Both the position numbers and the translations under genes were made by a program. 47,925 nt of DNA. It comes from a virus. Taxonomy: Duplodnaviria > Heunggongvirae > Uroviricota > Caudoviricetes. The stretch is taken from the IMG/VR virus record IMGVR_UViG_3300045988_143263. One strand, given 5' to 3'. Below are positions 1 through 47,925 of the stretch, piece by piece. The notes below the pieces were generated by a model. That model made no database searches. It saw only the letters and a list, made by a program, of their open reading frames with translations, and was not told the origin of the DNA. Position 1 is the first letter of the stretch, and the number at the start of each line of letters is the position of its first letter.

Positions 1-60
1 TAGGAAATTTTTTCCCACCTGTAAAGCACTTTTTATATAAATCTATAATTATATAAGCAC
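1..60 (-). promoter_or_regulatory. 3' half of repeated promoter-leader cassette (partial copy at window start; continues from window end if circular)
   Basis: Near-identical to 38578..38636 and 32196..32253; contains TTTACA -35-like box (reverse strand) and TATATAATTATAGATTTATATAA motif. Confidence 0.5.
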
Positions 61-86
61 AAAAAAGCCCCTTTGCAACAGGGGCT
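61..86 (-). terminator. rho-independent terminator downstream of antitoxin gene
   Basis: Minus-strand hairpin (GCCCCU / AGGGGC stem) followed by a U6 run, ~16 nt past the stop of 102..401. Confidence 0.5.
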
Positions 87-101
87 TATCATTCGTTCTG
101 A

Positions 102-401
102 TCAGATGTTAAACGCTATTCGTTTTCCTGTGGGAAGCTCAACATCCAGGCTTAATTTGCCTCCCATAGCTTCAACGTAACGCTTTAATGTCGCCAGCTT
201 TAAATCATTTCCGCGCTGCTCCAGCTTTGTTACTGCTGGCTGGCTTATACCCATCGCCTCAGCAACCTGTTTTTGTGATAACTGGAGTTCTTCACGCATC
301 ATCTGCAAGCCGACCTCAAGAATCATCTCATCTGCCATTTCTTTAATTCGCGCCTGGCTTTCCGGTGAACGGCTGGCAATCGCCTCATCTAATGTTCTCA
401 T
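102..401 (-). CDS. higA: HigA-like antitoxin (HTH XRE-family DNA-binding protein)
   Basis: 99 aa; HTH segment SQKQVAEAMGISQPAVTKLEQ; immediately downstream of and overlapping a RelE/HigB-like toxin gene. Confidence 0.65.
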   Translation of the reverse strand: MRTLDEAIASRSPESQARIKEMADEMILEVGLQMMREELQLSQKQVAEAMGISQPAVTKLEQRGNDLKLATLKRYVEAMGGKLSLDVELPTGKRIAFNI

Positions 402-754
402 TACTTGCTCTCCAGTGTGTTCAGATGTGCTGCAAACTCATCCTCAGCTATACGCACCAGTTTTTCATAAAACCGCTTATCGTTACTTTTGTCTCCTGCA
501 CAAAGAACGATGGCCCGGCGAATCGGATCGAACGCATAAAAGGCTCTTATCGGACGGCCAGAAAACTGAACGCGAAGCTCTTTCATATTTTTGTACCGAG
601 AACCTTTTACGGTATCGGCATATGGCCTGGGTAACTCAGGTCCGTAAACCTGTAGCTTTTTCAAATCAGCCAAAACCTTTTCCTGAAGAGCGTCTTCTTG
701 CTCATTTAGCCAGTCGTCAAATCGCTGGCTAAAAAGTACCGTCCACATGCTCAA
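401..754 (-). CDS. higB: HigB/RelE-family toxin (Gp49-like addiction-module killer protein)
   Basis: 117 aa; N-terminus MWTVLFSQRFDDWL and overall pattern typical of phage Gp49/HigB-like toxins; toxin-first operon with HTH antitoxin. Confidence 0.65.
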   Translation of the reverse strand: MSMWTVLFSQRFDDWLNEQEDALQEKVLADLKKLQVYGPELPRPYADTVKGSRYKNMKELRVQFSGRPIRAFYAFDPIRRAIVLCAGDKSNDKRFYEKLVRIAEDEFAAHLNTLESK

Positions 755-757
755 TCC

Positions 758-803
758 TATAACCTGTAGTTTATATCACTAACTATATAACCTGTGAGTT
801 ATA
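758..803. promoter_or_regulatory. tandem operator-like repeats upstream of the TA operon
   Basis: Two copies of TATAACCTGT(A/G)GTT(T)ATA, each with internal dyad symmetry, directly upstream of the toxin start. Confidence 0.4.
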
Positions 804-992
804 ATTTCAAGAAAAACGGGGCTATTTAACATAATGGACGTTATCGGCACCACCGGATCACCGTTCATTGTCGGATCTAAAAAATCCGCTCAAAAGATCA
901 TGTTTTCCTAGGCGTTTTCCACCGTTTTTTATGTTGCTTATTTGTTAATGAAATCTCGTTTTCAGTTTCGCCTCATTTTCGACGCGAAAGCC

Positions 993-1283
993 CTATTTTT
1001 GTGACTTTACTCCTGGCATATGGACTTCCCAGCGACGAATCCCCATAGCTGCGCAAAAATCAGCCACATAATTCAATCCCGCCCATTCGCGGATACCACC
1101 ACGGGCTTTTTCAATGAAAACGGCAATCCCTTTTTTATTGAGAGCAAAAAGCCGCCAGCTTTTTGTCACTTCGTCCTGGGTAGCCACAACACAAGTGAAA
1201 GCTCCCATGCGATACAGGTCCAAGAACTCTTTGCGTGTTTTGCGTACAAGTTCCATAACAAACCTCATATTTGCATGTTTCAA
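993..1283 (-). CDS. hypothetical protein
   Basis: 96-aa ORF, codirectional with neighbours; no family recognised by eye. Confidence 0.35.
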   Translation of the reverse strand: MKHANMRFVMELVRKTRKEFLDLYRMGAFTCVVATQDEVTKSWRLFALNKKGIAVFIEKARGGIREWAGLNYVADFCAAMGIRRWEVHMPGVKSQK

Positions 1284-1579
1284 ACATCTGTTTTGTTATC
1301 AATGAAGATTAACCCTAACCCAGCGAAGTAACACAGCAGCGCCCAGGCTGCATACGGAATGCTGGATCTGGATGTGGACTCCTTTAACATCTGCCAGTTG
1401 CGAACATTGCGACTATCTTTTAAGCCTAGTTTTTTGGCCAACTGCGAGCCGCTCATTCCGGTCAGGCCAATGACTGCCCGAACTTCTCCACATGTAGGAG
1501 ATTCCCATTCATCCGCTTTTTTTAAACAAGCCGGATTCAACATTTTTAAAACAGTATCTTTATCCATAACCATCTCCAT
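1280..1579 (-). CDS. putative HTH DNA-binding protein (start may be an internal Met near 1567)
   Basis: 99-aa ORF with HTH-like segment GMSGSQLAKKLGLKDSRNVRNW. Confidence 0.35.
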   Translation of the reverse strand: MEMVMDKDTVLKMLNPACLKKADEWESPTCGEVRAVIGLTGMSGSQLAKKLGLKDSRNVRNWQMLKESTSRSSIPYAAWALLCYFAGLGLIFIDNKTDV

Positions 1580-1765
1580 TTATTATATCTACGATGGTAG
1601 GAAATCTTTTCCTATGTGGCAATAGAAATTTACTACATTGCGTATAAGACAAGTTTTCTATGTCTAATAGGAAATGATGTTTCTTACGTTTTATCGCGTT
1701 CTGATGGCTACTGTGTGCGTATTTATCGACGTTTATTGATAAGGCTCGCCCCTTCCTCCTGCAAA

Positions 1766-1959: not shown

Positions 1960-2200
1960 CGTAAGTTAAATAAAGAAAGTCTTAATAAAAGAAAGTGATT
2001 TTGCATTTATTTGTTTAGTGCATCTATTATAAAAAACCATTTGCATATACATATCAAAACTGTGGATAACTTTATTAGCCGATGCCTGTAAAGGCGATAT
2101 TTTTGCTGTGTTCCGGTTTAGAGAAAATTAATTTAGATTGTTTTTTGAACAGATATTTTATTGCGACGTAGATAATCCTCCGGTAAAACCGGATTCATCA
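1960..2200. other. putative plasmid-type replication origin (AT-rich region with DnaA box) downstream of repA
   Basis: AT-rich tract 1960..2160 containing a perfect DnaA box TGTGGATAA at 2061..2069; lies 3' of the RepA gene as in IncFII oriR. Confidence 0.45.
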
Positions 2201-2210: not shown

Positions 2211-3059
2211 TTAATGTTGGAGTGATTTCCAGGTCTTTCTTAACCTGTTATAACGCTGCTCAACGAGGGATCGTAAATATGCAAGGTCAGCTCCAGGATA
2301 CATGCCATCAGCAAATTCCTGGCTAACCTCTCTAGTGATTTGATGACGAAGTTCGGCCTCTCCCTTTTCCCGAACAAGACGCGCAGCTCTCTCCGCTGCT
2401 TTCTGTTTTGCCTTTATCTCTCTGGCCGTCTTCCTCTGACGCCATACATTCTCCATCTGCTCCTGAATAACAATACGCTTATAATCAGCCTCCGTTATCG
2501 CTTTTTTAAGCCGTTCGCTATTCTTCGCATTGAAGTAATTAAGTTTCTGACTAACCGCACGTCTCCATGCTTGTTCAGTAATACCAACGGTTTCCAGCAG
2601 TTGATCACGAATCTCTATTTTCGCTGGCCAATACTGTTTATTCACCCGATCCCAGCGACGTTCATAATCAATAAAACCTAACGCTTTCAGTTGCGACAAC
2701 GCCCTTGTACAGCGCGTTATAGACTTGTTCCCAGCTTCGGATACGGTAGACAGGCCGCAAAAATCAGCCAACGCCTCAGCACTAGCCAGAACCCGCTTAG
2801 AAATGATGTTTACATGGTGCAAAATCGCAGCGATCACAGCATTAATCGCCCGACGACGATGCTCGTTTATCCGGCGCTTCCGCTCTGACGGTTGATTAAC
2901 GTAGAACGCAACCTCACACGTAAGATCACGCCCATTAATGCGCTGTAAAGCATCAGATAACACCAGCGGCAGCTTGTGCGTATGGTGCTTTGGAGGCTGG
3001 AACTCCGGCGACAAATTACAAACGTAAGCTGAACGTAGAGACGGCATTGGTCTATCCAT
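2211..3059 (-). CDS. repA: plasmid replication initiator RepA (IncFII RepA1-like)
   Basis: Segment GNKSITRCTRALSQLKALGFIDYE resembles the IncFII RepA1 core (…SITRATRAL…); start placed at internal MDRPMP (3059) rather than the ORF-track start at 3188, giving ~283 aa. Confidence 0.65.
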   Translation of the reverse strand: MDRPMPSLRSAYVCNLSPEFQPPKHHTHKLPLVLSDALQRINGRDLTCEVAFYVNQPSERKRRINEHRRRAINAVIAAILHHVNIISKRVLASAEALADFCGLSTVSEAGNKSITRCTRALSQLKALGFIDYERRWDRVNKQYWPAKIEIRDQLLETVGITEQAWRRAVSQKLNYFNAKNSERLKKAITEADYKRIVIQEQMENVWRQRKTAREIKAKQKAAERAARLVREKGEAELRHQITREVSQEFADGMYPGADLAYLRSLVEQRYNRLRKTWKSLQH

Positions 3060-3072
3060 ATGTTCGCTCTTG

Positions 3073-3185
3073 CGTCCACGGAAAACCAACGTATAATGGG
3101 AGTTGTCGAGGCGCCCATGGTTAATTGTTGGTTTTCCGTGGATGTCGCAAGAAGCCCGCAGATTTATCTGCGGGCTTTTTGTTTC
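3073..3185 (+). ncRNA. CopA-like antisense RNA in the repA leader (long imperfect hairpin plus terminator)
   Basis: Plus-strand inverted repeat 3074..3090 / 3127..3143 (16/17 bp), then a 12-bp perfect stem 3152..3177 followed by T5; antisense to the repA 5' region. Confidence 0.4.
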
Positions 3186-3369
3186 CATATCTGGTCACTT
3201 TCCAACCAGACACCCACAATCATAACCACGTTACGTGGTTTTAAGAGAACTCTACCACAACACTTTCGGTCATGCACGAAGTCTCTCACTGATCGAACGA
3301 TAATCCACCAGTAAAAGGATCTAAATTGGATCTCGTTTTGCGAGCATCATACTACTGGCCTAACTCCAG

Positions 3370-3924
3370 TCAATGATTCCCAGCCGGAAACCTGCGGTAA
3401 AGCGTGGATAAGGTAACATCGAAGATAATCGCTATCCGCTTACGTGAAACACCATTCGCAATAAGCCTTCCGATCTGTTCCCATTGCTCTGGTGCCAGCT
3501 TTGAGCGGCGTCCTCCTATCCTGCCGTTAGCCCTTGCCACCGCCAATCCTGCACGCGTTCTTTCAATCATATTTTCCCGCTCCATCTCTGCGACTGCACT
3601 CAGCATCGTGTAGGCAAAGCGGCCAATTGAAGTGCTAATTTTTATTCCTTCCGTAATCGAAATGAACTCAATGTTGTTTGATAAAAAATGGTTAAGTAAA
3701 TCAACAAGATGAATCAGAGAACGCCCCATTCGGTCCAGCTTCCAGACAATAACCGTATCGCCCGGTCGTAACACCTTCAGTAGCTTATCAAGTCCTGGTC
3801 GTTTTGATTTAGCACCGGATATTTTATCTTCAAAAATTCGGTCACATCCTGAACTCCTGAGCGCCTCCAGTTGTAATTCCAAATTCTGGTCAAAAGTTGA
3901 CACCCTCGCATAACCATATTGCAT
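3370..3924 (-). CDS. serine DNA invertase (Gin/Cin/Hin/Pin family)
   Basis: 184 aa; N-terminus MQYGYARVSTFDQNLELQ, resolvase catalytic domain and C-terminal HTH; adjacent to invertible tail-fibre segment. Confidence 0.85.
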   Translation of the reverse strand: MQYGYARVSTFDQNLELQLEALRSSGCDRIFEDKISGAKSKRPGLDKLLKVLRPGDTVIVWKLDRMGRSLIHLVDLLNHFLSNNIEFISITEGIKISTSIGRFAYTMLSAVAEMERENMIERTRAGLAVARANGRIGGRRSKLAPEQWEQIGRLIANGVSRKRIAIIFDVTLSTLYRRFPAGNH

Positions 3925-3988: not shown

Positions 3989-4014
3989 TTCGCAAAAACC
4001 TCGGTTTACAGGAA
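3989..4014. other. gix-like inversion crossover site (left)
   Basis: Reverse complement reads TTCCTGTAAACCGAGGTTTTTGCGAA, closely matching the Mu gix consensus TTCCTGTAAACCGAGGTTTTGGATAA. Confidence 0.7.
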
Positions 4015-4038
4015 ACGGTAAACAGGGCTGGTAACGCC

Positions 4039-4875
4039 GTGCAAAAAAATGGCGATACCTTGTCCGGTGGGCTTACTTTTGAAAATGACTCAATCCTTGC
4101 CTGGATTCGAAATACTGACTGGGCGAAGATTGGATTTAAAAATGATGCCGATGGTGACACTGATTCATACATGTGGTTTGAAACAGGCGACAACGGCAAT
4201 GAATATTTCAAATGGAGAAGCCGCCAGAGCACCACAACAAAAGACCTGATGACGCTGAAATGGGATGCACTAAATATTCTGGTAAATGCCGTCATTAATG
4301 GCAGTCTTGGAGTTGGTACGACGAATGCGTTAGGTGGTAGCTCTATTGTTCTTGGTGATAATGACACCGGATTTAAACAGAATGGAGACGGTATTCTGGA
4401 TGTTTATGCTAATAGTCAGCGTGTATTCCGCTTTCAGAATGGAGTGGCTATTGCTTTTAAAAATATTCAGGCCGGGGATGGTAAAAAATTCACGCTATCC
4501 AGCTCCAACACCTCCACAAAGAATGCAACGTTTAATTTATGGGGTGCTTCAACCCGTCCAGTAGTTGCAGAGTTAGGCGATGAGGCAGGATGGCATTTCT
4601 ATAGCCAGCGAAATACAGATAACTCGGTAATATTTTCTGTTAACGGTCAGATACAGCCCAGCAACTGGGGGAATTTTGATTCACGCTATGTAAAAGATGT
4701 TCGCCTGGGTACGCGTGTTGTTCAATTGATGGCGCGTGGTGGTCGTTATGAAAAAGCCGGACACGCAATTACCGGATTAAGAATCATTGGTGAAGTAGAT
4801 GGCGATGATGAAGCCATCTTCAGACCAATACAAAAATACATCAATGGCACATGGTATAACGTAGCACAGGTGTAA
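4039..4875 (+). CDS. alternative tail-fibre C-terminal variable segment (silent orientation; would fuse to the constant region after inversion)
   Basis: In-frame upstream peptide …LGLQETVN… matches the junction in the active fibre gene; C-terminus RPIQKYINGTWYNVAQV parallels the active fibre's [17 protein letters not shown]. Confidence 0.6.
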   Translation: MQKNGDTLSGGLTFENDSILAWIRNTDWAKIGFKNDADGDTDSYMWFETGDNGNEYFKWRSRQSTTTKDLMTLKWDALNILVNAVINGSLGVGTTNALGGSSIVLGDNDTGFKQNGDGILDVYANSQRVFRFQNGVAIAFKNIQAGDGKKFTLSSSNTSTKNATFNLWGASTRPVVAELGDEAGWHFYSQRNTDNSVIFSVNGQIQPSNWGNFDSRYVKDVRLGTRVVQLMARGGRYEKAGHAITGLRIIGEVDGDDEAIFRPIQKYINGTWYNVAQV

Positions 4876-4878
4876 ATT

Positions 4879-5406
4879 ATGCAGCATTTAAAAAATATTA
4901 AGTCAGGAAATCCAAAAACAAAAGAACAATATCAGCTAACAAAAAATTTTGATGTTATCTGGTTATGGTCCGAAGACGGTAAAAACTGGTATGAGGAAGT
5001 AAATAACTTTCAGGACGACACCATAAAGATTGTATACGACGAGAATAATATTATTGTCGCCATCACCAAAGATGCCTCCACGCTTAACCCTGAAGGCTAT
5101 AGCGTCGTTGAGATTCCAGATATAACAGCCAATCGTCGTGCCGATGATTCAGGGAAGTGGATGTTTAAGGACGGAACTGTGGTTAAGCGGATTTATACAG
5201 CAGACGAACAGCAACAACAGGCCGAATCACAAAAGGCCGTGTTGCTTTCTGAAGCTGAAAGCGTTATTCAGCCACTGGAACGTGCTGTCAGGCTGAATAT
5301 GGCGACGGATGAGGAACGCACACGACTGGAGTCATGGGAACGCTACAGCGTTCTGGTCAGCCGTGTGGATACAGCAAAGCCCGAATGGCCACAAAAGCCT
5401 GAGTAA
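4879..5406 (+). CDS. tail-fibre assembly protein (alternative copy, U'-like)
   Basis: 175 aa, paralogous to 5435..5974 ([18 protein letters not shown] vs [17 protein letters not shown]). Confidence 0.7.
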
Positions 5407-5411
5407 AAATT

Positions 5412-5430
5412 AAGGCCCAATATTGGGCCT
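5412..5430. terminator. bidirectional hairpin between convergent tail-fibre assembly genes
   Basis: aaggcccaatattgggcctt perfect hairpin between the stops at 5406 and 5435. Confidence 0.4.
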
Positions 5431-5434
5431 TCTC

Positions 5435-5974
5435 TCATTCTGGTTGTTCGGGAAACGTTACTGGCAGGCTGGAGGTGTCTGTAGATTCGACTTTCTGCGC
5501 ATAGAGCATCCACTCGGTTAATTTTTGTTTATTCTCGTCGGAAATGATGCCCAGCCGTAGCTGTGAGTCCCATAGCTGGGTTTTGTCCCTGACAAGTTGC
5601 AACAGGCTTTGTTTTTCATTTTCCGCTTGTTGTCGCTGCTCTTCCTCGGTATAAGTTCGCTTTATCACCGCGCCATCTTTGAACATCCAGTTACCCGAAA
5701 TATCAGCCCGTCTATTGGCTGTTATATCAGGCAACTCAACAACGCTTAAACCTTCTGGATTAATTACCGATACATCCTTATCAATAGCAACAATAATTCC
5801 CTCTGCTGTGTAAGCTAGCTTTATTGTGTCTTCCTGAAAGTTCTTTTGTTCTTCATACCAGTTTTTACCGTCTTCGGACCATAACCAGACAACGCCTGAG
5901 TTTTTAGTTAACAGGTACTGCTCTTTGGTTTTTGGATTGCCGGGTTTTATATTTTTTAAATGCATCATATTCAA
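5435..5974 (-). CDS. tail-fibre assembly protein (active orientation, U-like)
   Basis: 179 aa; overlaps the tail-fibre stop by 4 nt; paralogue of 4879..5406. Confidence 0.7.
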
Positions 5975-8466
5975 ACACTCGATATGTTATACCATGTACC
6001 ATTGATATTTTTTTGAATTGGTCTGTAATAAACGCCACCAATATTATCAGCAGAGTTAGAGCCTGTATCCTGAACGATAATCCCGGTATATGCGCAACCA
6101 GATGGAGCCTGATGTGTCCATGTTGTACCATTATTGGCTGGTTTATATGATGATGCACCACCAAGCCGGATATCCCGGACATAGCGTGAATCAAAATTAC
6201 CGTAATCTGATGGGTTAACACGTCCAGTAACATTTAATCCATGCCCAATTGAAACAGCACCATTGGCGTTGTTAATAGTAAGTGGTCTTAAATTATTCCA
6301 TGAGCCAAATCTGTCACCAGATGCAGTCAGCATAAAATAAGAATCTTTGCCGTCATTTCTGATAAAGAAACCATAATTGCCATAAGCAACGCGCAGACCA
6401 TTGGCATAGAGCGATGTAATTTCACCTCTTGAACGAAGACCATAAGCAGAGCTGAGTGATAATTCTTCCTGAGCATCAGTATTACCGGTCGCCCAGCGAA
6501 TTACCCCGCCCTGTACTGTTTCATGCCAGATAGTGTCTCCTTCTCCACCACGAAACTTTCTGAGATATTTTTTGCCGCCTCTGGTGCCGTAACATAAGGC
6601 CGTAGACATATAGGCATTCTGGCTTCCACTATCCTGATTAATAGTTCCAGACATAGAATCGCCATAACGGTTCCAGTCACGCCGCCAGCCAGGAGCATAG
6701 TTGTCCCCGTGGTTAATATAAGTAAATTGCGCGCTTGTAGCGCCCCCACCGCTTGATGTTGTTGGTGTGGTAATACGAATAGTCATTGCAGACTTTATTC
6801 CCATTACCTCAATAACAGCGCCAGCAAGATGAATATTGCCACAGCCCGTATCGGTAATAAGTTTATTATTGGCATATGACCAGGAGCCTTTGCACATCCA
6901 GTATGGATGATTAAAAGCGCCTACCGAATCAAGCCACTCAATAAACTGAGCTGTAGTCCAGTTTCCACCTTCTGTGCTGTAAGAGCCGCTAAAAGCACGA
7001 GCTGCACTAATATTTTTTGCAAAAGTGTCTTTACTTGGAATATCTGCGCCGTTCTGGTTTTTCTGCAACGCGCCAGAAGCCTGATTTACCGTTTCCTGCA
7101 AACCGAGGTATTCGATAACGGCGGCAACGGTCGATTTCGCAAGAATATCCCGCCCGACTTTTGTCAGAGTTGCCAGGCTGGCGACATCATTCCCCGTAAA
7201 ATACGGAAACCTGTCTGCCGCAGTAGCAAGCCCGGCCAGCGCCGTCAGGGTGGCATCTTTCGGTTGCTTACCCGCAAGCGCGTTAGTCATGGTGGTCGCA
7301 AAATTCGGGTCATTGCCCAACGCCGCAGCCAGCTCGTTCAGCGTATTCAGTGCGTCAGGCGACGAGTCCACGAGGGCAGCGATCGCAGCCATAACATAAG
7401 CCGTGCTTGCGATCTGAGTATTGTTAGTACCTTTTGGCGCAGTTGGTGTTGTTGGTGTTCCGGTCAGCGCCGGACTGTTCAGGGGCGCTTTCTTGTTCGT
7501 TTCATCCATTACCACCTTTACAGCTTTCGATGTCGCGGCCAGTGTTTCAGACGTGCTGTTGGTGGCACTACTGAGCTGAGTTATTCCCCTTACAGTCAGT
7601 GAAGCTACAGGCACATTTGTTATCTGCTCCCACGAATGCGTGTGATTGGACGGAGCCTTTCCGGCCGCAAGATCATACGCTGCCTTAACAGCCTTTGGTG
7701 TTGCTGCCAGCGTTTCAGACGTGCTGTTGGTGGCACTACTGAGCTGAACAATCCCTTTTCGCGCTGTGGTAGCGTCCTGTGCGGTGTATTTAGCGTTAGC
7801 CAGGTCATATGCTGCCTTAACAGCCTTAGGCGTCGCAGCAAGCGTTTCAGACGTGCTATTGGTGGCGCTGCTAAGTTGAACAAAGCCTTTTAAGGTTAAA
7901 GTTGCATCAGGATGATTACGTGATTGCTCATGTTTCACAATGGCTTGCTTAAGCCGCTTTGCTGAAACAGCAAGGGAATCATCTGTACCTGCATCAATTT
8001 CTTGTTCATTAGCAAATCTTGCCACCCCAACAACAGTTTCGGTCGCGGGAGGATTAATAAACTCAATATCACCAAATGTAATATTTTTAGTATCAAGAGT
8101 TTTAATTGCTATATCACTTGATATTAAAGCGATAGTAGATGATGCTTTATTTATTATTGCTTGTTCTTGTGAGTATACAGCAAACAACGTACCCTTATTC
8201 GTATACAATCCTATTGTATGGACAACGTACTCATCTTTACTATCATCCTTCGCTGTTACATGAATTGTATCAGGGGAAACAACTTTGCCACCTATTGTGG
8301 TAAGTCGTTTTATTTCGTTTGTTATATTTGTTTGTGAAGTTGACGTGACATAATATCTACTACCTAAACCAACAGAAACAATCTCAACTTTATTTGTTCC
8401 TGTTTTGTTGGCATTAACCAGCTCCTGACGCCCGGCGTCAGTCATCGTAAATAATAATTTACTCAC
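5971..8466 (-). CDS. tail fibre protein (constant N-terminal region ~7106..8466 plus invertible C-terminal region)
   Basis: 831 aa; three internal repeats of [30 protein letters not shown]; C-terminal receptor-binding module shared with the alternative segment. Confidence 0.8.
7093..7118. other. gix-like inversion crossover site (right, inside tail-fibre gene)
   Basis: TTCCTGCAAACCGAGGTATTCGATAA, inverted relative to the left site; coincides with the LGLQETVN junction of the fibre protein. Confidence 0.7.
7540..7880. repeat. intragenic ~132-bp tandem repeats (three 44-aa repeat units in tail fibre)
   Basis: Near-identical blocks cgtttcagacgtgctgttggtggcactactgagctga at ~7540, ~7708 and ~7840. 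Confidence 0.6.
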
Positions 8467-8496
8467 GCTTAATTCCTTGAATTAACAAATTGCGAA

Positions 8497-11593: not shown

Positions 11594-11595
11594 AA

Positions 11596-35003: not shown

Positions 35004-35015
35004 TGAAATCCTCGT

Positions 35016-38526: not shown

Positions 38527-38647
38527 CAGATTTCTCCGGTTTAACCAGGGCGGGTATCGCTCGGTTTCGGGTATAACCTTAGGAAATTTTTTCCCACCTG
38601 TAAAGCACTTTTTATATAAATCTATAATTATATATTTATAGATTTTC
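38527..38647 (-). promoter_or_regulatory. repeated promoter-leader cassette, copy B (immediately downstream of Q-like gene)
   Basis: -35 TTTACA (rc of 38599..38604), 17-nt spacer, -10 TAAGGT (rc of 38576..38581), AT-rich upstream motif, ~45-nt leader with GGAGA RBS. Confidence 0.5.
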
Positions 38648-39074: not shown

Positions 39075-39077
39075 TGT

Positions 39078-39410: not shown

Positions 39411-39811
39411 TTGGTATCCCCTGGTACTTCACCAAGACTAAGATCAAACCCAATTTCGTCTTTAACTGACTGCGGCAACAGCTCCCACGTCTGCGCACAC
39501 AAAAATTCATCTGTGCCATAACGCTCAACAAAGCGAGCACAATTACTCAGGGGAGGGTGACGAACGGCAATATGCGGAGGCACGCGCCCACCACCAGGCA
39601 CAACACCGCGATGATGTGGTGCGCACAGCCCAAAGCTATGGAAGTGGCAATTCTCATCAACGCTGCCGTAATCAGGATCGTGATGCAGCTCCGTCCACAG
39701 CTCTGGATTCTCAATTTCACGGCCATCAATAATGCAAGCTATGCAACCCACGTGAGTGAGCACCGCTTGTATATAAAGTTTCTCTTTCTTCGTTGGTGTA
39801 CGTCCGTTCAT
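39407..39811 (-). CDS. Ref-like HNH nuclease (recombination enhancement function family)
   Basis: 134 aa; N-terminus MNGRTPTKKEKLYIQAVLTHVGCIACIIDG and His/Cys-rich core resemble P1 Ref-family proteins. Confidence 0.45.
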   Translation of the reverse strand: MNGRTPTKKEKLYIQAVLTHVGCIACIIDGREIENPELWTELHHDPDYGSVDENCHFHSFGLCAPHHRGVVPGGGRVPPHIAVRHPPLSNCARFVERYGTDEFLCAQTWELLPQSVKDEIGFDLSLGEVPGDTK

Positions 39812-40044
39812 CAGCGCCCCTTACCATTGATAAAGAGGTTGAACTCGTTGATTAACTGGACATACATGCTTCTGGCCGCGTAGTTCTTTGCCAGCTCTTT
39901 ACGTGATGAGATCCCGCAAAACTCACGCAGAATCACAGAGGCCTCAGAACTGTTCGAAACGTTCTTCCCTGTTTTACTGGTCAGAAAGCGCCAGAATTGG
40001 GGATTCTGGCAATGCATCGCAGCACCGCGAACATAACTACTCAT
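39811..40044 (-). CDS. hypothetical protein
   Basis: 77-aa ORF, translationally coupled. Confidence 0.3.
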   Translation of the reverse strand: MSSYVRGAAMHCQNPQFWRFLTSKTGKNVSNSSEASVILREFCGISSRKELAKNYAARSMYVQLINEFNLFINGKGR

Positions 40045-40556
40045 TGATGGCCCCCGTCATTTCTGGTGCTTTTCACCGTGCGGCTGATTAAAAATCTGCC
40101 ATCACGAGAAACAGACACATCTCGTTTACCCAACCTCATTTCACGGCGGTAACATTCAGAAAATGCCTCGTCCGGCAGCATATAAATGCGGCGTTTCGCC
40201 TCCGTATCCAGAAGAGAACGGCTTGGGGTTACATATAAAAACGACTCATCAATAGGGACAAAACCACGAGCAAGAATTGCTGGCAGAATGCCAGGAAGAA
40301 CGCAGAAAACAGCTCCACGATGCAGCAACATCTGGTACTCCATGACCTCCGTTATCCCCGTGACTACTGTTACGGTGTCACGTCTGTTACGGCTGGCAAC
40401 CAGTCGCTGCACACGTCCAATTTTCTGATCTACAGATAGATGTTTGCTATCGTTATCAATATGATCGATAACAAATCCTTTAATCGTTTGATCAAGGTAG
40501 TGCACCACCTGCGATTGAATCTGGTGATTATCACCAAAGAAGGCCAGAATCATCAT
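40041..40556 (-). CDS. hypothetical protein
   Basis: 171-aa ORF downstream of the Cro-like gene. Confidence 0.3.
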   Translation of the reverse strand: MMILAFFGDNHQIQSQVVHYLDQTIKGFVIDHIDNDSKHLSVDQKIGRVQRLVASRNRRDTVTVVTGITEVMEYQMLLHRGAVFCVLPGILPAILARGFVPIDESFLYVTPSRSLLDTEAKRRIYMLPDEAFSECYRREMRLGKRDVSVSRDGRFLISRTVKSTRNDGGHQ

Positions 40557-41047
40557 TCCTCAAGCCTCCCAAGTGCTGAACGCCGGGCGTTGCTAATCTC
40601 CTTATGAATCAGCTCGATATCGCTGGAATCTTTATTCTTAAACTCCAGCATGGCAATCGCATCACGAACCTCTGAAACGGTTACGTGTGAGTGTTTCCAG
40701 CGAGCAATGAATCGCGGACCGCGTAGATTGCAACGCTCCGCAGGCATCCCCAGCTCAGAGAAAACCGCTTTCAACCTTGATAAGCAGTTAACAGGGAGAT
40801 TCCCTTTGATCTTGTTCTGCCGAACCGATGTGCCATCGCTACGCTGGCGCTGACGTTCGGCAAAATCTGCCGCCCATTGCTGGACGTTAATCCGGCCTTC
40901 CGAATACGCTACCAGCAGCGTCAGGTTATCCGCACGAGGGAATCTCTCGAAGCGATACCAGGCACCAATCAGTGATGACGTAAAGCCAAACTTTCTGGCA
41001 ACACCAATTTGGCCTCCATTTTCGTCAACCCACTCCTGAAAGGTCAT
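40553..41047 (-). CDS. Cro/CII-like early regulatory protein
   Basis: 164 aa; N-terminal HTH-like segment ENGGQIGVARKFGFTSSLIGAWYRF; divergent from the CI-like repressor gene. Confidence 0.45.
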   Translation of the reverse strand: MTFQEWVDENGGQIGVARKFGFTSSLIGAWYRFERFPRADNLTLLVAYSEGRINVQQWAADFAERQRQRSDGTSVRQNKIKGNLPVNCLSRLKAVFSELGMPAERCNLRGPRFIARWKHSHVTVSEVRDAIAMLEFKNKDSSDIELIHKEISNARRSALGRLEE

Positions 41048-41065
41048 TTAACGAACTCCAGTTAA

Positions 41066-41183
41066 ACCACGATATGTGGTATTAAAACCACATATCGTGA
41101 GTTTTTCAATGGGCGAAACAAAAAATAACCTTCTATTTGTGGTCCACCTCTCGTCTTACCATGTGAAAACCACTAAATGTGGT
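41066..41183. promoter_or_regulatory. immunity operator/promoter region with ACCAC-N5-GTGGT sites
   Basis: ACCACGATATGTGGT (41066..41080), ACCACATATCGTGAG (41087..41101), ACCACTAAATGTGGT (41169..41183); TATAAAT -10-like box at 41188..41194. Confidence 0.5.
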
Positions 41184-41220
41184 AATGTATAAATAACCCA
41201 CCATTCACGATTGATGAGAC

Positions 41221-41877
41221 ATGAAAAGCAACGACGAGAACATCAAGAAAGAAATAGGTCTGCGCATTCAGACTCTACGGAAACAATCCGGCATGACTGC
41301 CGGAGATCTCCAGCAAGTCACTGGAATAGGCTTAAGCACCTTGCAGAACTATGAGGCCGGATTAAGACAACCATCTATACCTGCCATCAAGAAAATCGCG
41401 CACGCCCTGAAAGCATCAGCGCCTTATATCGCGTGCTTAACAGATAACCCGTTCCCACCCCAGAATACTAACGCTCCTGTTATTCCTGGGCTTGTAGCTA
41501 TAAAAAATGACATAGCATCGCACGCCGGAGAAAAGCCAGTGCTGGCGATAGAACAGGAGATTCTACGAAGCAAGAACATCAACCCATCGTCTCTGTCAGT
41601 TCTCCAGAGCAACGATGAGTTAATGTCACCAACAATATCCCCTGGCTCCCAAGTCCTGATTGATACAGACGATACAGAGATTCATGAGGGGATCTATGCC
41701 CTTGAAGACAGAAATGGCCTGGTTGTTTTGAGGCACTGTAGAGTCATACCGGGTGACAATGCTGTTATGCTGTCAACCGAAAGGGATGCTGAAATGAACA
41801 CTAAGCATCTGAATAACGAGGAATTTAAGCGTTATAAAGTTCTTGGCCGCGTAGTTAGTGTTGTCAACTGGTTATGA
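41221..41877 (+). CDS. CI-like prophage repressor (N-terminal HTH, C-terminal S24 LexA-type peptidase domain)
   Basis: 218 aa; HTH TAGDLQQVTGIGLSTLQNYEAG and C-terminal S24-like fold. Confidence 0.75.
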   Translation: MKSNDENIKKEIGLRIQTLRKQSGMTAGDLQQVTGIGLSTLQNYEAGLRQPSIPAIKKIAHALKASAPYIACLTDNPFPPQNTNAPVIPGLVAIKNDIASHAGEKPVLAIEQEILRSKNINPSSLSVLQSNDELMSPTISPGSQVLIDTDDTEIHEGIYALEDRNGLVVLRHCRVIPGDNAVMLSTERDAEMNTKHLNNEEFKRYKVLGRVVSVVNWL

Positions 41878-42360: not shown

Positions 42361-42475
42361 GCCCGCTTATATGATTATAGATTTATATAATTATATAAAA
42401 CGCTTTCCATCCGCCAAAAAGTTGGTTATGCTTACCTCGTTCTATAAATATAGATTTATAGAATTATATAACCAA
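42361..42475. repeat. AT-rich iteron cluster upstream of parA (candidate centromere/operator)
   Basis: ATGATTATAGATTTATATAATTATATAA and ATAAATATAGATTTATAGAATTATATAA blocks. Confidence 0.5.
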
Positions 42476-42494
42476 ACACATGGAGTCTCGACAA

Positions 42495-43148
42495 ATGACT
42501 ATCTCTGTAGGTATTTTCAACGGAAAAGGCGGCGTAACCAAATCAACAATTGCCCGTGCTTTAGCAGTTGCTTATGCAAAGGCTGGCTGGAATGTATGCC
42601 TGATCGATATGGATGTGCTTAACGGAACGGTAACACGTTGGGTACAACGCAGAATGGCCAACAATATCGAACCAGCAATCGCGGCGCAGCCGTGCGGCAC
42701 ACCATCACAAGTCCAGAAAATCATCGAATCAGAAGTATACGACCTGGTTATCGTCGATGGCGGTGCCTACGCATCTGAATCAGTACCGAAGCTCTCTGAA
42801 TTTCTGGATATGGTTATTTTGCCAACCAGATTCTCTACCGATGACCTGGAAACCACCGTTAACACAGCTCACGGCATCGTTAAAAAGGGTGTACCAATCA
42901 AGAAAATTTGCATGGTGTTTTCCGGCGCGGCTGAAAACGAAGCTGACTATATTGAAGCCCAAGAGTACCTGGCTAATACGCCATACTTTGTTGTCGATAA
43001 GTACATTCCCCACAAGCCAGCTCTGAGCAAAGCTCAGGATAAGGGCTTAAGCCTCATTGAGTGCTCATACGTTGCGCCACGCAAAAAGGCAGACGACGTT
43101 ATTCAGGGGATTATCAACCAGCTTGAGGCTCTGACTACTGCCGCGTAA
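42495..43148 (+). CDS. parA: ParA-family partition ATPase
   Basis: Deviant Walker A box NGKGGVTKST ten residues from the chosen start; start set at the second ATG (GGAG RBS). Confidence 0.8.
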   Translation: MTISVGIFNGKGGVTKSTIARALAVAYAKAGWNVCLIDMDVLNGTVTRWVQRRMANNIEPAIAAQPCGTPSQVQKIIESEVYDLVIVDGGAYASESVPKLSEFLDMVILPTRFSTDDLETTVNTAHGIVKKGVPIKKICMVFSGAAENEADYIEAQEYLANTPYFVVDKYIPHKPALSKAQDKGLSLIECSYVAPRKKADDVIQGIINQLEALTTAA

Positions 43149-43180
43149 TATATAATTATAGTTTTATAGATTTATATAAG
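43147..43180. repeat. AT-rich iteron block between parA and the ParG-like gene
   Basis: ATATATAATTATAGTTTTATAGATTTATATAA. Confidence 0.45.
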
Positions 43181-43191
43181 AGGGGATACAC

Positions 43192-43440
43192 ATGGCCGCA
43201 CCATCAAAACCACCAAAGAAGAACAGCAAAGGCGTACCGCCATCGATCGAACAACCGCAGGTTTTCGACCCGACTGAAACGCCAACCAGAACCAAATCAG
43301 GTGGGGCACAAATGGCGTTTAACGTCGACCCTGAATTTAAACGCGAGTACAAAACGTTCGCCAGCTCAATGGATATGTCATTGAAAGAAGTGCTGACAAA
43401 GTCTTTTGAGTTACTCAAGGCTCAATACAACCAGAAGTAA
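43192..43440 (+). CDS. ParG-like ribbon-helix-helix centromere-binding protein
   Basis: 82 aa; disordered basic N-terminus and C-terminal RHH-like segment MAFNVDPEFKREYKTFASSMDMSLKEVL; directly downstream of parA. Confidence 0.5.
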   Translation: MAAPSKPPKKNSKGVPPSIEQPQVFDPTETPTRTKSGGAQMAFNVDPEFKREYKTFASSMDMSLKEVLTKSFELLKAQYNQK

Positions 43441-44959: not shown

Positions 44960-45056
44960 CGCCATTGGTGGACACTTTCCGAGCCGTAGCAAAATCTACG
45001 GCCGGGATTGGAACCCCGTAGACACAATGGCGCATACCGCGTTAGCGGTTTTTTTA
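44960..45056 (+). ncRNA. candidate c4-like regulatory small RNA
   Basis: Three predicted hairpins (44984..45001, 45002..45018, 45036..45048) ending in T7; two blocks are complementary to the downstream leader at 45128..45148. Confidence 0.35.
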
Positions 45057-45221
45057 TGCGTAAAGCACTGCTACACCCAAATTATGGTGGGGCGTGCGGG
45101 GGAGTCGTAAGACTCGCCGGTTCGTCATTGTGTCCGGTAGTTCCAACCCTGCACGTCTCACCACCCAATGATTGGAACCTGACGGTGGTGAGTATCCTTA
45201 ACCTTTAAGGGAATCATCACA

Positions 45222-45413
45222 ATGACAAACCTACCCCATGACTATTACGTCAACCTCGTAAAGATCCTTCTCAAGAAAGCCTCATACGCCGATAAATTAC
45301 GCCTGGCTGAAATCATCGAGCGCGAAGCTATGCGCATCGCCAGCAACGATAACGCTGTTTCTGACGCAAAAATCTCCCTCGTAACCAAAGTAGTTATGGG
45401 AGGTGCAAAATGA
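45222..45413 (+). CDS. small protein translationally coupled to antirepressor gene (Icd-like position)
   Basis: 63 aa; AAGGGA RBS; stop overlaps the antirepressor start (ATGA). Confidence 0.35.
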   Translation: MTNLPHDYYVNLVKILLKKASYADKLRLAEIIEREAMRIASNDNAVSDAKISLVTKVVMGGAK

Positions 45414-46552
45414 AAACGCTTCCGACCGTTAACACCCTACAGCCTATCCTGCATAACCAGATCCCCGTTATCACTAGTGAACTTCTGGCGCAGTTATACG
45501 GAACAAAAATCAAAAACATTTCTGATAATTTTCTGAACAACACGACGCGATTCGTAGCCGGAAAGCATTACTTTAAAATTGAAAAAAACGAATTACGCGA
45601 GTTCAAGAACAGACCCGAAACAATCGGGTTAGTTGGTAAAAATGCCCGCTCCCTAATTCTCTGGACCGAACGCGGGGCTGCACGTCACGCTAAAATGCTC
45701 GAAACCGATCAGGCGTGGGATGTATTCGAACGGCTGGAAGACTGCTATTTCAACCAGAACGCGCAAACGGCCGCGACCGTAACCGTCTCGCCAAACAATG
45801 CTCGTGAGGTTGTCGATACGCTCAACGCCAAACCGATGTTTTACATTAAGGTGTGCAATAACGAGCCACTCACAACCTCAGCCGATGTTGCCCAGGCATT
45901 CAGCACCACAAACAATTCCATCGTTATGGCCATCGATGCGTTACGCATTCCTCGCACAGCTGCGGCGCGTCACTTCTTTAAAGAACAACGACCGCTGGAA
46001 GGAAGCGACCGCGAAATAACAATCTATCGCATGACAAAAGACGGATTTACCTTGCTCATGGAAAGTATCGACGGTCCAGGCGTGAAGGATATCAAGCTGG
46101 CCTACATTGAAGCCTTTAACGCTATCAGCAGCGTGTTAAAAACACAGTACGAGCGCGATCTGGCTAAACGACTGTACCAGGAAAAAACGATTATCCGCGC
46201 GGCAACAGAGCATAATCGGCTATTAACGGAACCGAACTACAGGAAGGAACTAATCAAGGAGTTTGACAAGGCAACAGGGAAAACCAAAGCGGCGCTAAAT
46301 CTGCCAGCAATGACTCAGGAAAATGTGATATCAGCCTTACTTCTTGATCTGCTCAGAAACGCCAGAGCACTGATCAGCTTTGACGAAAACCTGAATCCTC
46401 AGCTCAAGCTACTACCACCGACAGGCAAAGTAGTCGACCAGGCAGATCACAACAGCATACTCAGCGTACTGGATGCAAACCTGCCAGCCAGGACACTACA
46501 GGAGCTGATAAAAACATGTGCTGATAAGCTCGCACAGAAAAGCAGACCATAA
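45410..46552 (+). CDS. phage antirepressor (Ant-like, ORF6N/Rha-type domains)
   Basis: 380 aa; N-terminal segment ITSELLAQLYGTKIKNISDNF…FKIEKNEL and a second Rha-like region LTTSADVAQAFSTTNNSIVMAIDAL. Confidence 0.5.
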   Translation: MKTLPTVNTLQPILHNQIPVITSELLAQLYGTKIKNISDNFLNNTTRFVAGKHYFKIEKNELREFKNRPETIGLVGKNARSLILWTERGAARHAKMLETDQAWDVFERLEDCYFNQNAQTAATVTVSPNNAREVVDTLNAKPMFYIKVCNNEPLTTSADVAQAFSTTNNSIVMAIDALRIPRTAAARHFFKEQRPLEGSDREITIYRMTKDGFTLLMESIDGPGVKDIKLAYIEAFNAISSVLKTQYERDLAKRLYQEKTIIRAATEHNRLLTEPNYRKELIKEFDKATGKTKAALNLPAMTQENVISALLLDLLRNARALISFDENLNPQLKLLPPTGKVVDQADHNSILSVLDANLPARTLQELIKTCADKLAQKSRP

Positions 46553-47087
46553 CAACAAAGGGGCTACGGCCCCTTTAAGACACACCCCCCCTCCCCCCAT
46601 ACAGGGTGCCCTTTACCGGAGTTCCGGCCCCTTCTCAAAAGCATCAAAAAAAGCTCGAGATAGAGTACCGGAACTCATGCCACCAGATAGCTCCACATCG
46701 TTTCCAATGCTTCGCCGCCGTGTGCGCCCTGTGGCCCACAATCATGCCATTGGTCGTCTGATATACCTTCTTCTGCTCATAGAGCACAGGCGAGTTGTCG
46801 CACTCCTGCCTTTCTCAGACTCGACTTAGTTTAGATCGCTGTTCCTGGCTTGCGTCAGCACACTTTCCCCTTGTACGCATACCCGCGCGCCACTTCGCCC
46901 AAAAACACCGAACCCAACGAAGTGGCAAAGACAACGACGCGAGCGTGAGTCTGAAATGGGCACCAGTAAAAAAGGGGTTGCAGGCGCAAAAAGATTTGAT
47001 TATCTTTAGACGCAAGAAAGCCGCCCCAATCAAGAGGTGTCTTTTTAAATCCAGCCTACCAAGCAAGATTTAAATTTCAGACTGAAA

Positions 47088-47109
47088 ACCGCCCGGCAAG
47101 GCGGTTTTT
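47088..47109. terminator. bidirectional rho-independent terminator
   Basis: accgcc-cggcaa-ggcggt hairpin followed by T5 on plus strand; ~50 nt past the stop of the minus-strand HTH gene. Confidence 0.45.
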
Positions 47110-47157
47110 GTCTTTCTGGCGCTTACATTACACCACCATAAAACGATCCGTAAAGGA

Positions 47158-47430
47158 TCATTTGATCCCTTGTTCCAATTCTGCCGACACTTTAACCTTT
47201 TCCCATACAAGGGTTTGCAGCCTTAACAGAATCGCATCTTTATCAAGGTGTGAAAGATCCTTCACCATATCGTCAAACGACAGAACGCGAATGGCCATCT
47301 CAATGACCCTCGGCGGCTCCCCCTTCTCATATCGCTTATATGTAGCCAACGATATCCCAAATTCTTCGGCGGCTCGCTCCTGCGTCCAGTTCATCCCACG
47401 ACGCCATAATTTCAATTCATAACCCGTCAT
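47158..47430 (-). CDS. HTH XRE-family regulator (start trimmed to MTGYELK)
   Basis: ~90 aa; HTH GMNWTQERAAEEFGISLATYKRYEKG; strong GAGGAGG RBS upstream of ATG 47430; ORF-track start at 47463 is a TTG. Confidence 0.5.
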   Translation of the reverse strand: MTGYELKLWRRGMNWTQERAAEEFGISLATYKRYEKGEPPRVIEMAIRVLSFDDMVKDLSHLDKDAILLRLQTLVWEKVKVSAELEQGIK

Positions 47431-47458
47431 AGCACCCTCCTCGCACAATATTAACACT

Positions 47459-47485
47459 CGCAAAGTGTCAAAATGACACTTTGCG
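47459..47485. promoter_or_regulatory. 27-bp perfect palindrome operator overlapping a TTGACA -35 box
   Basis: cgcaaagtgtca-aaa-tgacactttgcg; the minus strand reads TTGACA within the left arm; ~30 nt upstream of the HTH gene. Confidence 0.5.
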
Positions 47486-47493
47486 CATTGTGT

Positions 47494-47874
47494 TTACTTA
47501 ACGAGGAATAAAAATGGTTTATTGTTCGGCGGTGTAATCGGGGCTGGCTCGCTTTTGCTCATGCGATCAGTGTACCAGGCCAACTCCTTGTCAAAGTAAG
47601 CCTGATTAAAATAGGCCATGAATGTAGTTTCAAATCCATAACGACCGCTAATACGCAGCATCTGATTGCCGTTCTCTGTTTCCAGATATACCTGGGCACG
47701 TTCCTGATTCTCCTTCAGCCAGGTTAAAGCCTCATCGCATGAGGACACACGATACTCATCATCGTAGCAGTCATCGATGCGGCTTGAGGAAGAACGGCAA
47801 ATCACGCCAACAGAACCAGCCAGGATAGTTTGAATTTTAAGGAAAGCGTTTTTGCGGATTTTAATCATGCTCAT
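47494..47874 (-). CDS. hypothetical protein (first gene downstream of a repeated promoter-leader cassette)
   Basis: 126-aa ORF; ATG at 47872..47874 directly follows the conserved leader …ccggagataacccg. Confidence 0.4.
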   Translation of the reverse strand: MSMIKIRKNAFLKIQTILAGSVGVICRSSSSRIDDCYDDEYRVSSCDEALTWLKENQERAQVYLETENGNQMLRISGRYGFETTFMAYFNQAYFDKELAWYTDRMSKSEPAPITPPNNKPFLFLVK

Positions 47875-47925
47875 CGGGTTATCTCCGGTTTAACCAGGGC
47901 GGGTATCGCTCGGTTTCGGGTATAA
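47875..47925 (-). promoter_or_regulatory. 5' half of repeated promoter-leader cassette (partial copy at window end)
   Basis: Identical to 32144..32194 and near-identical to 38527..38578; continues into window positions 1..60 if the replicon is circular. Confidence 0.5.

Follow-up and report, generated by a model that had tools for sequence, protein, structure and literature searches.

We analysed a stretch of viral DNA of 47,925 nucleotides (nt; IMG/VR record IMGVR_UViG_3300045988_143263, Caudoviricetes), which as a whole we call the window, and conclude that it is very probably the complete genome, about 3 nt short and circularly permuted, of a temperate myovirus whose prophage does not integrate and persists as a free circular plasmid. 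The element is a further member of a common, under-described phage-plasmid family and not a new kind. More tentatively, we propose that this tailed phage-plasmid may have taken over the kil-kor circuit of IncP plasmids, with a KorC homologue and its own partition protein silencing three promoter cassettes in the lysogen, and a burst of expression on entry.

The ends of the window and its relatives

Both ends of the window lie within a cassette of about 110 bp that has two intact copies in the interior. The AT boxes, the palindrome and the leader named here are described further below.

47871..47925, minus strand: left (downstream) half of cassette copy 3, with the leader hairpin, the Shine-Dalgarno sequence GGAGA and the ATG (47874-47872) of the open reading frame (ORF) 47494-47874
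1..56, minus strand: right (upstream) half of cassette copy 3, with a KorC-type palindrome (1-17), the -35 hexamer TTTACA (20-25) and three 8-bp AT boxes (33-56)
32140..32258, minus strand: cassette copy 1, with the palindrome at 32198-32214 and the boxes at 32230-32253
38522..38643, minus strand: cassette copy 2, with the palindrome at 38580-38596 and the boxes at 38612-38643, heading a DUF3560 gene (37459-38526)

The window ends in ...CCGGTTTAACCAGGGCGGGTATCGCTCGGTTTCGGGTATAA and starts with TAGGAAATTTTTTCCCACCTGTAAAGCACTTTTTATATAAATCTATAATTATATA, each of which is half of a cassette. Positions 47871-47925 are identical (100%) to the left half of copy 1 (32140-32194), and positions 1-55 are identical (100%) to the right half of copy 2 (38580-38634). 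There are exactly three occurrences of each half in the window, where 100 shuffles give an expectation of none. In both intact cassettes (32140-32258 and 38522-38640) there are 3 nt, CCA or CCT, between the halves. A preliminary description of the window had claimed that its ends reconstitute one cassette copy; this is right for the two 55-nt halves, but the copy that results is 3 nt short.

Next, we asked whether the ends are neighbours in related molecules. In the circular plasmid CP057727.1, the homologue of the last 1.35 kb of the window continues into the homologue of its first 56 nt, with the CCT present. The Yersinia phage vB_YpM_44 and four IMG/VR contigs (L003, L006, L007 and L008) can be aligned without a break from the window end into at least 0.6-1.5 kb of its start. 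In summary, at least six independent relatives cross the junction with small gaps only. Furthermore, a junction probe of 120 nt was searched in 5,426 complete Escherichia coli genomes and matched 74 of them. The whole probe was covered in 72, and all of these have 2-4 additional bases in the middle, 118-120 bases of the record being aligned to 116 of the query. In the same genomes, 214 of the 217 places that match a cassette are on plasmid records and the other 3 on chromosomes. The exact junction that is 3 nt short was found in no contig of the species-representative genome collection. A separate observation concerns a record of 94,204 bp from E. coli ATCC 25922 (NZ_CP032086.1), which has six cassette places and hence carries the element twice, perhaps because it is a dimer or through an error of assembly.

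Since the relatives run across the junction with only a few extra bases, the alignments tell us that the window ends are neighbours and that no more than about 3 nt are missing. Trimming or a misassembly of the repeat may explain the short join, and so may a deletion private to this molecule, which would change the -10 hexamer to TATTAT; a loss during assembly is suggested because both terminal identical runs are exactly 55 nt long.

The relatives also show what kind of element this is. A megablast search against phage records found the Yersinia phages vB_YpM_39, vB_YpM_41 and vB_YpM_44 (49 kb) at 97-99% identity, which are deposited phages isolated on Y. pestis EV76. Of these, vB_YpM_44 covers 96% of the window colinearly, and none of its structural genes is missing from the window. 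In PLSDB and in the complete E. coli genomes we see about 60-70 circular, non-mobilizable plasmids of 46-52 kb with 97-99% identity (63 PLSDB plasmids; 72 of 5,426 complete E. coli genomes, that is, about 1.3%). Their hosts are E. coli, E. fergusonii, E. albertii, Klebsiella aerogenes and Salmonella. One of them is the plasmid NZ_CP009073.1 (48,488 bp) that E. coli ATCC 25922 carries. In complete genomes the close relatives are separate circular replicons. With 47,925 nt the window falls within the family range and lacks no family-conserved part; note that shorter family records of 28-39 kb also exist.

Members of this family (NZ_CP009073.1, pESBL3215, pRHB16-C19_3, Salmonella pAR-0407-1 and the three Yersinia phages) share with the window 97-99% nucleotide identity over 80-96% of its length, the gene order, three cassettes at matching places and the genes for RepA, ParA, the ParG-like, the KorC-like and the CI-like protein. 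They differ from it in small accessory insertions and deletions (e.g. 43952-44905 and 35396-35541), in divergent tail-fibre tips, in the orientation of an invertible segment, in a 90-nt insertion in the putative cos region and in the 3 nt absent at the join. The whole-genome comparison that the preliminary description had called for thus leads to a family that is already abundant in databases. The genome itself is ordinary, being one more copy of a plasmid-phage that is found in about 1.3% of complete E. coli genomes, including that of the quality-control strain ATCC 25922.

In the literature, the family member pESBL3215 is labelled simply "phage plasmid" (PMC7822866). A current typing tool distinguishes ten types of phage-plasmids, namely P1_1, P1_2, N15, AB_1, cp32 and five SSU5-related groups (PMC12977533). 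The family of the window falls outside these ten types, which have other sizes and tails, and typing tools will therefore miss such elements. In our literature collection, which is incomplete, we found no paper that characterises the family, and searches for the names of the Yersinia phages and for ATCC 25922 together with phage-plasmids returned nothing. None of the five family-member accession numbers that were searched appeared in the supplements of two phage-plasmid papers.

Plasmid and virion functions

An element of this kind should carry the genes of a plasmid as well as those of a phage. The plasmid functions are:

2211..3188, minus strand: repA, replication initiator (Pfam IncFII_repA, PF02387, 1e-43; NCBIfam RepA_IncFII_LM, NF040977)
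1960..2110, minus strand: probable replication origin (DnaA box and AT-rich stretch)
42367..43440, plus strand: partition locus with box arrays, parA and a ParG-like ORF
42367-42398 and 42440-42471: par box arrays that flank the parA promoter; 43148-43179: par box array after parA
42495-43148, plus strand: parA, 217 amino acids (Pfam CbiA/ParA, NCBIfam ParA_partition)
43192-43440, plus strand: ParG-like ORF, 82 amino acids, 3' of parA
102..748, minus strand: HigBA-type type II toxin-antitoxin pair (Pfam)
401-748, minus strand: toxin of the HigB/Gp49 family (Pfam Gp49, 5e-23)
102-401, minus strand: helix-turn-helix (HTH) antitoxin, HigA (Pfam HTH_3, 4e-10)
61..90, minus strand: intrinsic terminator of the higBA operon, directly upstream of cassette copy 3 (read from the sequence)

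The replication protein scores 231.5 bits against the RepA_IncFII_LM profile, where the cut-off is 70, and is therefore an IncFII/L-M-type RepA. Its coordinates are those of the longest ORF, and the family profile matches from residue 57. Downstream of repA, a perfect DnaA box, TTATCCACA, occupies 2069-2061, with an AT-rich stretch after it. This is the usual place for an origin of the IncFII type, and 1960..2110 is probably the origin at which RepA would fire. Besides repA, the window has no other replication genes, and on the strand opposite to repA (3148-3181) we see a terminator-like hairpin only.

The partition locus resembles type Ib systems in that it has a small Walker-type ParA (217 amino acids, with matches to the ParA_partition and CbiA profiles). 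The 82-amino-acid ParG-like protein is predicted to have a disordered N-terminus and then two helices (pLDDT, the model's local confidence score, 77-84), a shape that fits a ribbon-helix-helix protein seen as a monomer. The two proteins would segregate the copies of the plasmid. A search for related loci with the ParA alignment returned only unrelated ParA genes. Right after the par operon, on the minus strand, lies an RNA of the ryfA family (43664-43962; Rfam RF00126, 136.6 bits against a gathering threshold of 80), which has a bidirectional terminator in common with the operon; on a plasmid it may be a type I toxin-antitoxin addiction module.

None of the ORFs encodes a protelomerase, a transposase or an integrase of the tyrosine or large serine type. 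All 14 ORFs of at least 250 amino acids are accounted for, and the only recombinase is an invertase of 184 amino acids. That repA, parA/parG and a toxin-antitoxin pair are present and an integrase is not had been read from the sequence before, and the analysis bears this out, the parG part being the 82-amino-acid ParG-like ORF.

The virion, packaging and lysis genes form a complete set:

5971..18037, minus strand: P2-type contractile tail, with fibre, I, J, W, V, D, X, tape measure, chaperone, tube and sheath
18037..26305, minus strand: connectors and lambda-type head (Pfam Phage_cap_E, CLP_protease, Phage_portal_2, GpA_ATPase, GpA_nuclease)
26887..27443: non-coding region with the candidate cos site (deposited ends of vB_YpM_44)
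33521..35051, minus strand: lysis cassette with two holins, a GH108 endolysin and a small ORF (annotations of relatives)

The tail was assigned from the Pfam families Baseplate_J, Phage_base_V, Phage_GPD and Phage_tube and from the annotations of relatives, the tube being FII. The head module encodes the major capsid protein E, a decoration protein, a ClpP-type protease, a lambda-family portal, a gpW-like protein and the GpA terminase, and it has a candidate gene for the small terminase subunit. The Pfam matches agree with the earlier view of the genome as a mosaic of a lambda-like head and a Mu/P2-like tail, the tail being of the P2 type. All head, tail, terminase and lysis ORFs are of full length.

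In the deposited record of vB_YpM_44, the ends correspond to 27287/27288, within the dyad CGAAC-CCCGAT-GTTCG (CGAAC-N6-GTTCG). This dyad sits in a gap of 560 nt, with the genes for ParB_N, the small terminase and the terminase downstream of it. If the deposited ends are the true termini, 26887..27443 probably holds the cos site, and the GpA-type terminase would package from it near 27.3 kb. In the same neighbourhood the window has a 90-nt insertion with ATCTTTAACCA-like repeats that is absent from the vB_YpM_44 record.

Several points weigh against a complete, circular and infectious phage-plasmid. The end-to-start join lacks the 3 nt (CCT) found in both internal cassette copies and in every relative, and for plaque formation and for the extrachromosomal state of the window's own element the support comes from relatives. 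No Rfam match was found for a CopA-like antisense RNA that would control repA. Furthermore, we found no multimer-resolution site or recombinase (cer/dif-like XerCD sites were scanned for at one spacing only). Finally, the 82-amino-acid ParG-like protein had no match in Pfam, NCBIfam or the PDB, be it as a single sequence or as a profile, and a Foldseek search with its model was uninformative; it has no detectable sequence or fold similarity to ParG, omega or any solved structure.

Potentially, the window could be a domesticated or defective phage-derived plasmid that replicates and segregates and makes no infectious particles. Families of phage-plasmids do include defective members (PMC12977533), and the records of 28-39 kb could be read in this way. 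On the other hand, the ORFs for head, tail, terminase and lysis have their full length and share 97-99% identity with their counterparts in the Y. pestis phages, and with 96% coverage against a Yersinia phage genome no structural gene is missing, so that we consider a defective element improbable.

It is still less probable that the window is not closed, be it a contig that ends at a repeat and has lost more than 3 nt, or part of a dimer, a cointegrate or a chromosome. Six independent relatives pass from its end to its start with small gaps only, its length is within the family range and nothing that the family conserves is absent. These findings stand against the position of both ends inside a thrice-repeated sequence, identical terminal runs of exactly 55 nt, as is typical of assembly breaks, a join that is 3 nt short, a 94-kb record with two copies of the element and three cassette places on chromosomes. 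That the element integrates, or that it is a linear plasmid prophage like N15, is hardly credible, since nothing beyond the three chromosomal cassette matches speaks for it, the ORFs include no tyrosine or large serine integrase, protelomerase or transposase, and the relatives are circular plasmid records.

In summary, the preliminary description had called the window a probably complete circular phage-plasmid of about 48 kb. The ends are neighbours in relatives and both the phage and the plasmid gene sets are there, which supports this reading of a probably circular molecule; what did not hold is a perfect join, as 3 nt are missing from it.

The promoter cassettes and the KorC homologue

In addition to the three cassettes, the window contains:

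1283..1579, minus strand: KorC homologue, 99 amino acids (pairwise comparison, tblastn)
1598..1614, minus strand: fourth KorC-type palindrome, TAGGAAAAGATTTCCTA, in the -35/-10 spacer of the promoter of the korC-like gene

On the minus strand, a cassette consists of three to five AT boxes of 8 bp (TTATATAA/TTATAGAT), AAAGTGC, the -35 hexamer TTTACA, a 17-bp spacer with the palindrome T(G/A)GGA-N7-TCCTA, a -10 hexamer (TAAGGT or TATGGT), a leader of 45 nt, ACCGGAGA and the ATG. Judged by these elements, the cassette is a sigma-70 promoter with a structured leader. Copy 1 heads an ORF of 89 amino acids (31874-32143), followed by genes for ParB_N-domain proteins and a ParB_N-methyltransferase. 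The palindrome was found only at the three cassettes and at 1598-1614; four or five such sites in the window compare with a mean of 1.6 in shuffled sequences. In the Salmonella and Serratia relatives the count is also four, again at promoters, which makes three lineages.

The KorC homologue has 51% identity over 80 amino acids (E = 1e-23) with the annotated KorC of an IncP-typed (IncP-1) Cupriavidus plasmid. By tblastn it matches genes annotated as korC on IncP and many other plasmids. We then compared the promoters. On the Cupriavidus plasmid, the klcA and kleA promoters consist of a KorB operator, a KorA operator, AAAGTGCTTGAC, TAGGGCATTTTGCCCTA and TAATAT, followed by a leader with a GGCCGGGC...GCCCAGGTC hairpin, ACCGGAGA, N7 and the ATG. 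Both can be aligned colinearly with the window cassette (copy 2), the palindrome motif occurs in both, and the annotated korC, klcA and kleA genes are nearby. On this alignment, the cassette is the phage-plasmid counterpart of the kil promoter and leader of IncP, including an operator for KorC.

The leader hairpin was recovered independently by RNAalifold in 18 variants, two pairs showing compensatory changes. Folding of single leaders is not significant by itself (z between -0.9 and -3.0), the support for the hairpin being comparative. The hairpin is not an Rfam family. A pairing of the leader with the C4 RNA was considered and dropped on inspection of the sequences. We also considered the HTH protein of 90-101 amino acids encoded downstream of cassette 3 (47158-47463) as the shared regulator, and dropped it because the Serratia relative lacks this protein, while the KorC homologue accompanies the cassettes everywhere.

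KorC homologues adjoin multi-copy cassettes in unrelated metagenome contigs as well. The cassette, with palindrome, hairpin and ACCGGAGA, is present in 2-3 copies per contig in eleven metagenome loci (L033, L050, L065, L084, L085, L094, L099, L114, L126, L130 and L142); the cassette-bearing loci belong to many unrelated lineages, and several of them have KorA/KorB operators upstream. The genes driven by the cassettes differ between lineages. Since their cargo is not conserved, the cassettes would act as portable control units for variable genes.

Arrays of at least three phased AT boxes occur seven times in the window, and not at all in 100 shuffled sequences. Three of the seven belong to the cassettes, one lies at 37395, two flank the parA promoter, and the last separates parA from the ORF of the ParG-like protein. 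The Serratia plasmid pJSRIV006_2 has arrays of another AT motif, which again flank the parA promoter and precede three cassettes and a Lar gene. In IncP, where KorB is the partition protein, the operators of KorA and KorB take the place that the boxes have here. Because the same arrays flank the promoter of its own operon, the simplest reading of the sequences is that the ParG-like partition partner most likely binds the AT boxes and co-regulates the cassettes. The arrays may also serve as extra centromeres.

In RP4, the klcA and kle promoters are repressed by KorA together with KorC and are the most strongly induced genes on entry into a new cell (PMC7314908). By analogy, we propose the following for the window. 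The KorC homologue, itself expressed from the fourth promoter of this kind, most likely represses all four through the palindrome in the 17-bp spacer, and a second protein, most likely the ParG-like one, would bind the arrays just upstream. The cassette promoters would then fire briefly when the DNA enters a new cell and be shut off afterwards. If this is true, AT boxes have replaced the KorA/KorB operators, a plasmid-style establishment programme operates inside a virus, and the cargo of the cassettes can be swapped, with DUF3560 and the ParB_N-methyltransferase operon in the window and other genes in Serratia.

Two observations count against this proposal. The -10 hexamers of the cassettes are weak and are not called by a simple promoter scan; and the link between the ParG-like protein and the AT boxes is one of position and of a comparison between two lineages in which every protein differs. 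Both the weak hexamers and the location of the boxes at about -38 to -62, a classic activator position, could also mean that the cassettes are late or middle promoters that are activated through the arrays upstream of the -35, and not repressed establishment promoters. Moreover, the genes headed by cassette 1 form a long leftward series that continues into those for packaging and morphogenesis. However, base for base the layout shows homology to promoters of IncP-1 for which repression by KorC and KorA is known (PMC7314908), the window encodes a KorC homologue whose gene has an operator too, and boxes on both sides of the parA promoter are the usual arrangement for autorepression. We therefore regard activation as unlikely, if worth bearing in mind.

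Immunity, accessory features and known systems

The immunity functions, the tail-fibre switch and the early genes are as follows:

41048..41877, plus strand: immunity switch (operators and repressor gene)
41221-41877, plus strand: CI/LexA-like repressor gene (HTH_3, 4e-11, and a weak Peptidase_S24 match)
3225..3239: CI-type operator, ACCACGTTACGTGGT, upstream of repA
44983..46552, plus strand: P1 immI-like anti-immunity unit (Rfam, Pfam)
44983-45055, plus strand: isrK RNA (Rfam, 70 bits against a gathering threshold of 50)
45080-45168, plus strand: C4 antisense RNA (Rfam RF01695, 77.8 bits against a gathering threshold of 45)
45222-45413, plus strand: ORF of 63 amino acids, for which homology to Icd is not shown
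45410-46552, plus strand: ORF6N/Rha antirepressor (Pfam ORF6N, Phage_pRha)
38697..41047, minus strand: early leftward operon (Pfam, PHROGs)
39407-39811, minus strand: Ref-like RecA-dependent nuclease (Pfam RecA_dep_nuc, 2e-11)
39078-39410, minus strand: DUF1064 protein (Pfam DUF1064, 7e-19)
3370..3924, minus strand: serine DNA invertase of the Hin/Gin/Cin type (Pfam Resolvase, 3e-44, and HTH_7)
3995..7112: invertible tail-fibre segment between inverted repeats (3995-4049 and 7058-7112)

In the divergent region between the early operon and the repressor gene there are two ACCAC-N5-GTGGT palindromes (41066-41080 and 41169-41183). In total, the window has four perfect sites (the others being at 41920-41934, after the repressor gene, and at 3225-3239, upstream of repA), with 0.8 matches expected when up to one mismatch is allowed. 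A copy with one mismatch lies ahead of the isrK/C4 unit (44909-44923). The operator before repA is kept at the matching place in Salmonella pAR-0407-1. The CI/LexA-like repressor would thus bind both at the switch and before repA, and probably also ahead of the c4-ant unit. The position of the operators suggests that it also limits the expression of RepA and the replication of the plasmid; loss of the repressor would therefore raise the copy number. The C4 antisense RNA would restrain the antirepressor, as it does in P1 and N15.

The invertible segment of about 3 kb carries alternative fibre tips and chaperones on both strands and the inverted repeats I1-I4 and I6, and it is 84-94% identical to the G and C segments of Mu, D108, P1 and P7. 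Its orientation is the opposite one in vB_YpM_44 and pRHB16-C19_3, which is consistent with an active switch; the Gin-type invertase would exchange the tail-fibre tips.

Among the remaining features are three proteins with a ParB/Srx N-terminal domain (26296-26886, 28180-29559 and 29553-30176), located between cassette 1 and the terminase genes. One of them is fused to a methyltransferase, and a separate MT-A70 methylase is also present; these ParB_N-domain proteins are not the partition protein. The single tRNA of the window (33152-33227, minus strand, anticodon CAT) is a tRNA-Met according to ARAGORN and a tRNA-Ile according to the NCBI annotation of the ATCC 25922 plasmid copy. In-frame tandem repeats occur in the tape-measure gene (13249-13533, period of 120 nt) and in the tail-fibre gene (7499-7891, about 130-170 nt), as is ordinary for such proteins.

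With P1 and P7 (Punavirus, type P1_1) the element shares the circular plasmid prophage, the unit of C4 RNA, small ORF and antirepressor, the Ref nuclease, a Cin-type invertible fibre segment and pmgT (92% nucleotide identity over 0.5 kb). The accessory logic had been described as P1-like from the start, and the Hin/Gin-type invertase, the Ref-like nuclease and the C4 RNA-small ORF-ORF6N/Rha antirepressor unit agree with this. In contrast to P1 and P7, the window is half the size and has a lambda-type head with a GpA terminase, an IncFII-type RepA instead of the P1 RepA, a small ParA with an 82-amino-acid partner instead of ParA/ParB/parS, a CI/LexA-like repressor instead of C1 and no Cre/lox. 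The type P1_1 is defined by a size of 72-125 kb, Cre/lox, P1 RepA, ParAB-parS and C1, whereas the window has 47.9 kb, none of these genes and short P1-like segments only. N15, a plasmid prophage whose antirepressor is also under the control of a small processed RNA, has dispersed partition sites that influence the expression of phage genes. N15-like elements are linear, encode a protelomerase and are siphoviruses, whereas here we see a contractile tail and no protelomerase ORF. The SSU5-related siphoviruses (85-134 kb) differ in size and tail type. The layout is thus not that of P1, N15 or SSU5, just as the preliminary description had judged it, with differences in size, tail type and genes.

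A further related system is the Serratia plasmid pJSRIV006_2 (L009, NZ_CP074139.1). It has the same order of repressor, orf, parA, parG-like gene, Rha, toxin-antitoxin pair and repA, a korC gene, an early operon with Ref and DUF1064, the KorC-type palindrome at four promoters and three cassettes. It differs in its lambda-like, non-contractile (siphovirus) tail, a protease-capsid fusion, the sequence of the AT boxes, unrelated cassette-driven genes and the partition proteins (ParA 53%, ParG-like protein 38% identical). From this comparison, the family appears to swap whole tail modules.

In type Ib partition systems, such as ParF/ParG of TP228 and delta/omega of pSM19035, the small DNA-binding partner is also a regulator. 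The window shares with them a Walker ParA of about 217 amino acids followed by a small protein with a (predicted) disordered N-terminus and two C-terminal helices, as well as short phased repeat arrays that flank the operon promoter and recur at other promoters.

Finally, the kil-kor system of IncP-1 plasmids (RK2/RP4; KorC and the klcA, kleA and kleC promoters) shares with the window a KorC homologue that is 51% identical, a 17-bp TAGG-N9-CCTA in the spacer, the -35 context AAAGTGCTTxAC, the leader hairpin, the ACCGGAGA-N5-7-ATG spacing and, if the role of the AT boxes is as we think, operators for partition proteins or global regulators just upstream. The window differs in being a tailed phage and not a conjugative plasmid, in having arrays of 8-bp AT boxes in place of KorA/KorB operators, in driving DUF3560, small ORFs and ParB_N/methyltransferase genes and not klcA or kle, and in a korC gene with its own promoter. 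The new part is the cassette. Through it, a tailed phage is connected with the kil-kor regulon of IncP, and it suggests a joint action of partition proteins and KorC in timing a burst of genes that is specific to entry. This offers a testable case of phage-plasmids borrowing the establishment logic of plasmids, and a ready-made pair of promoter and operator.

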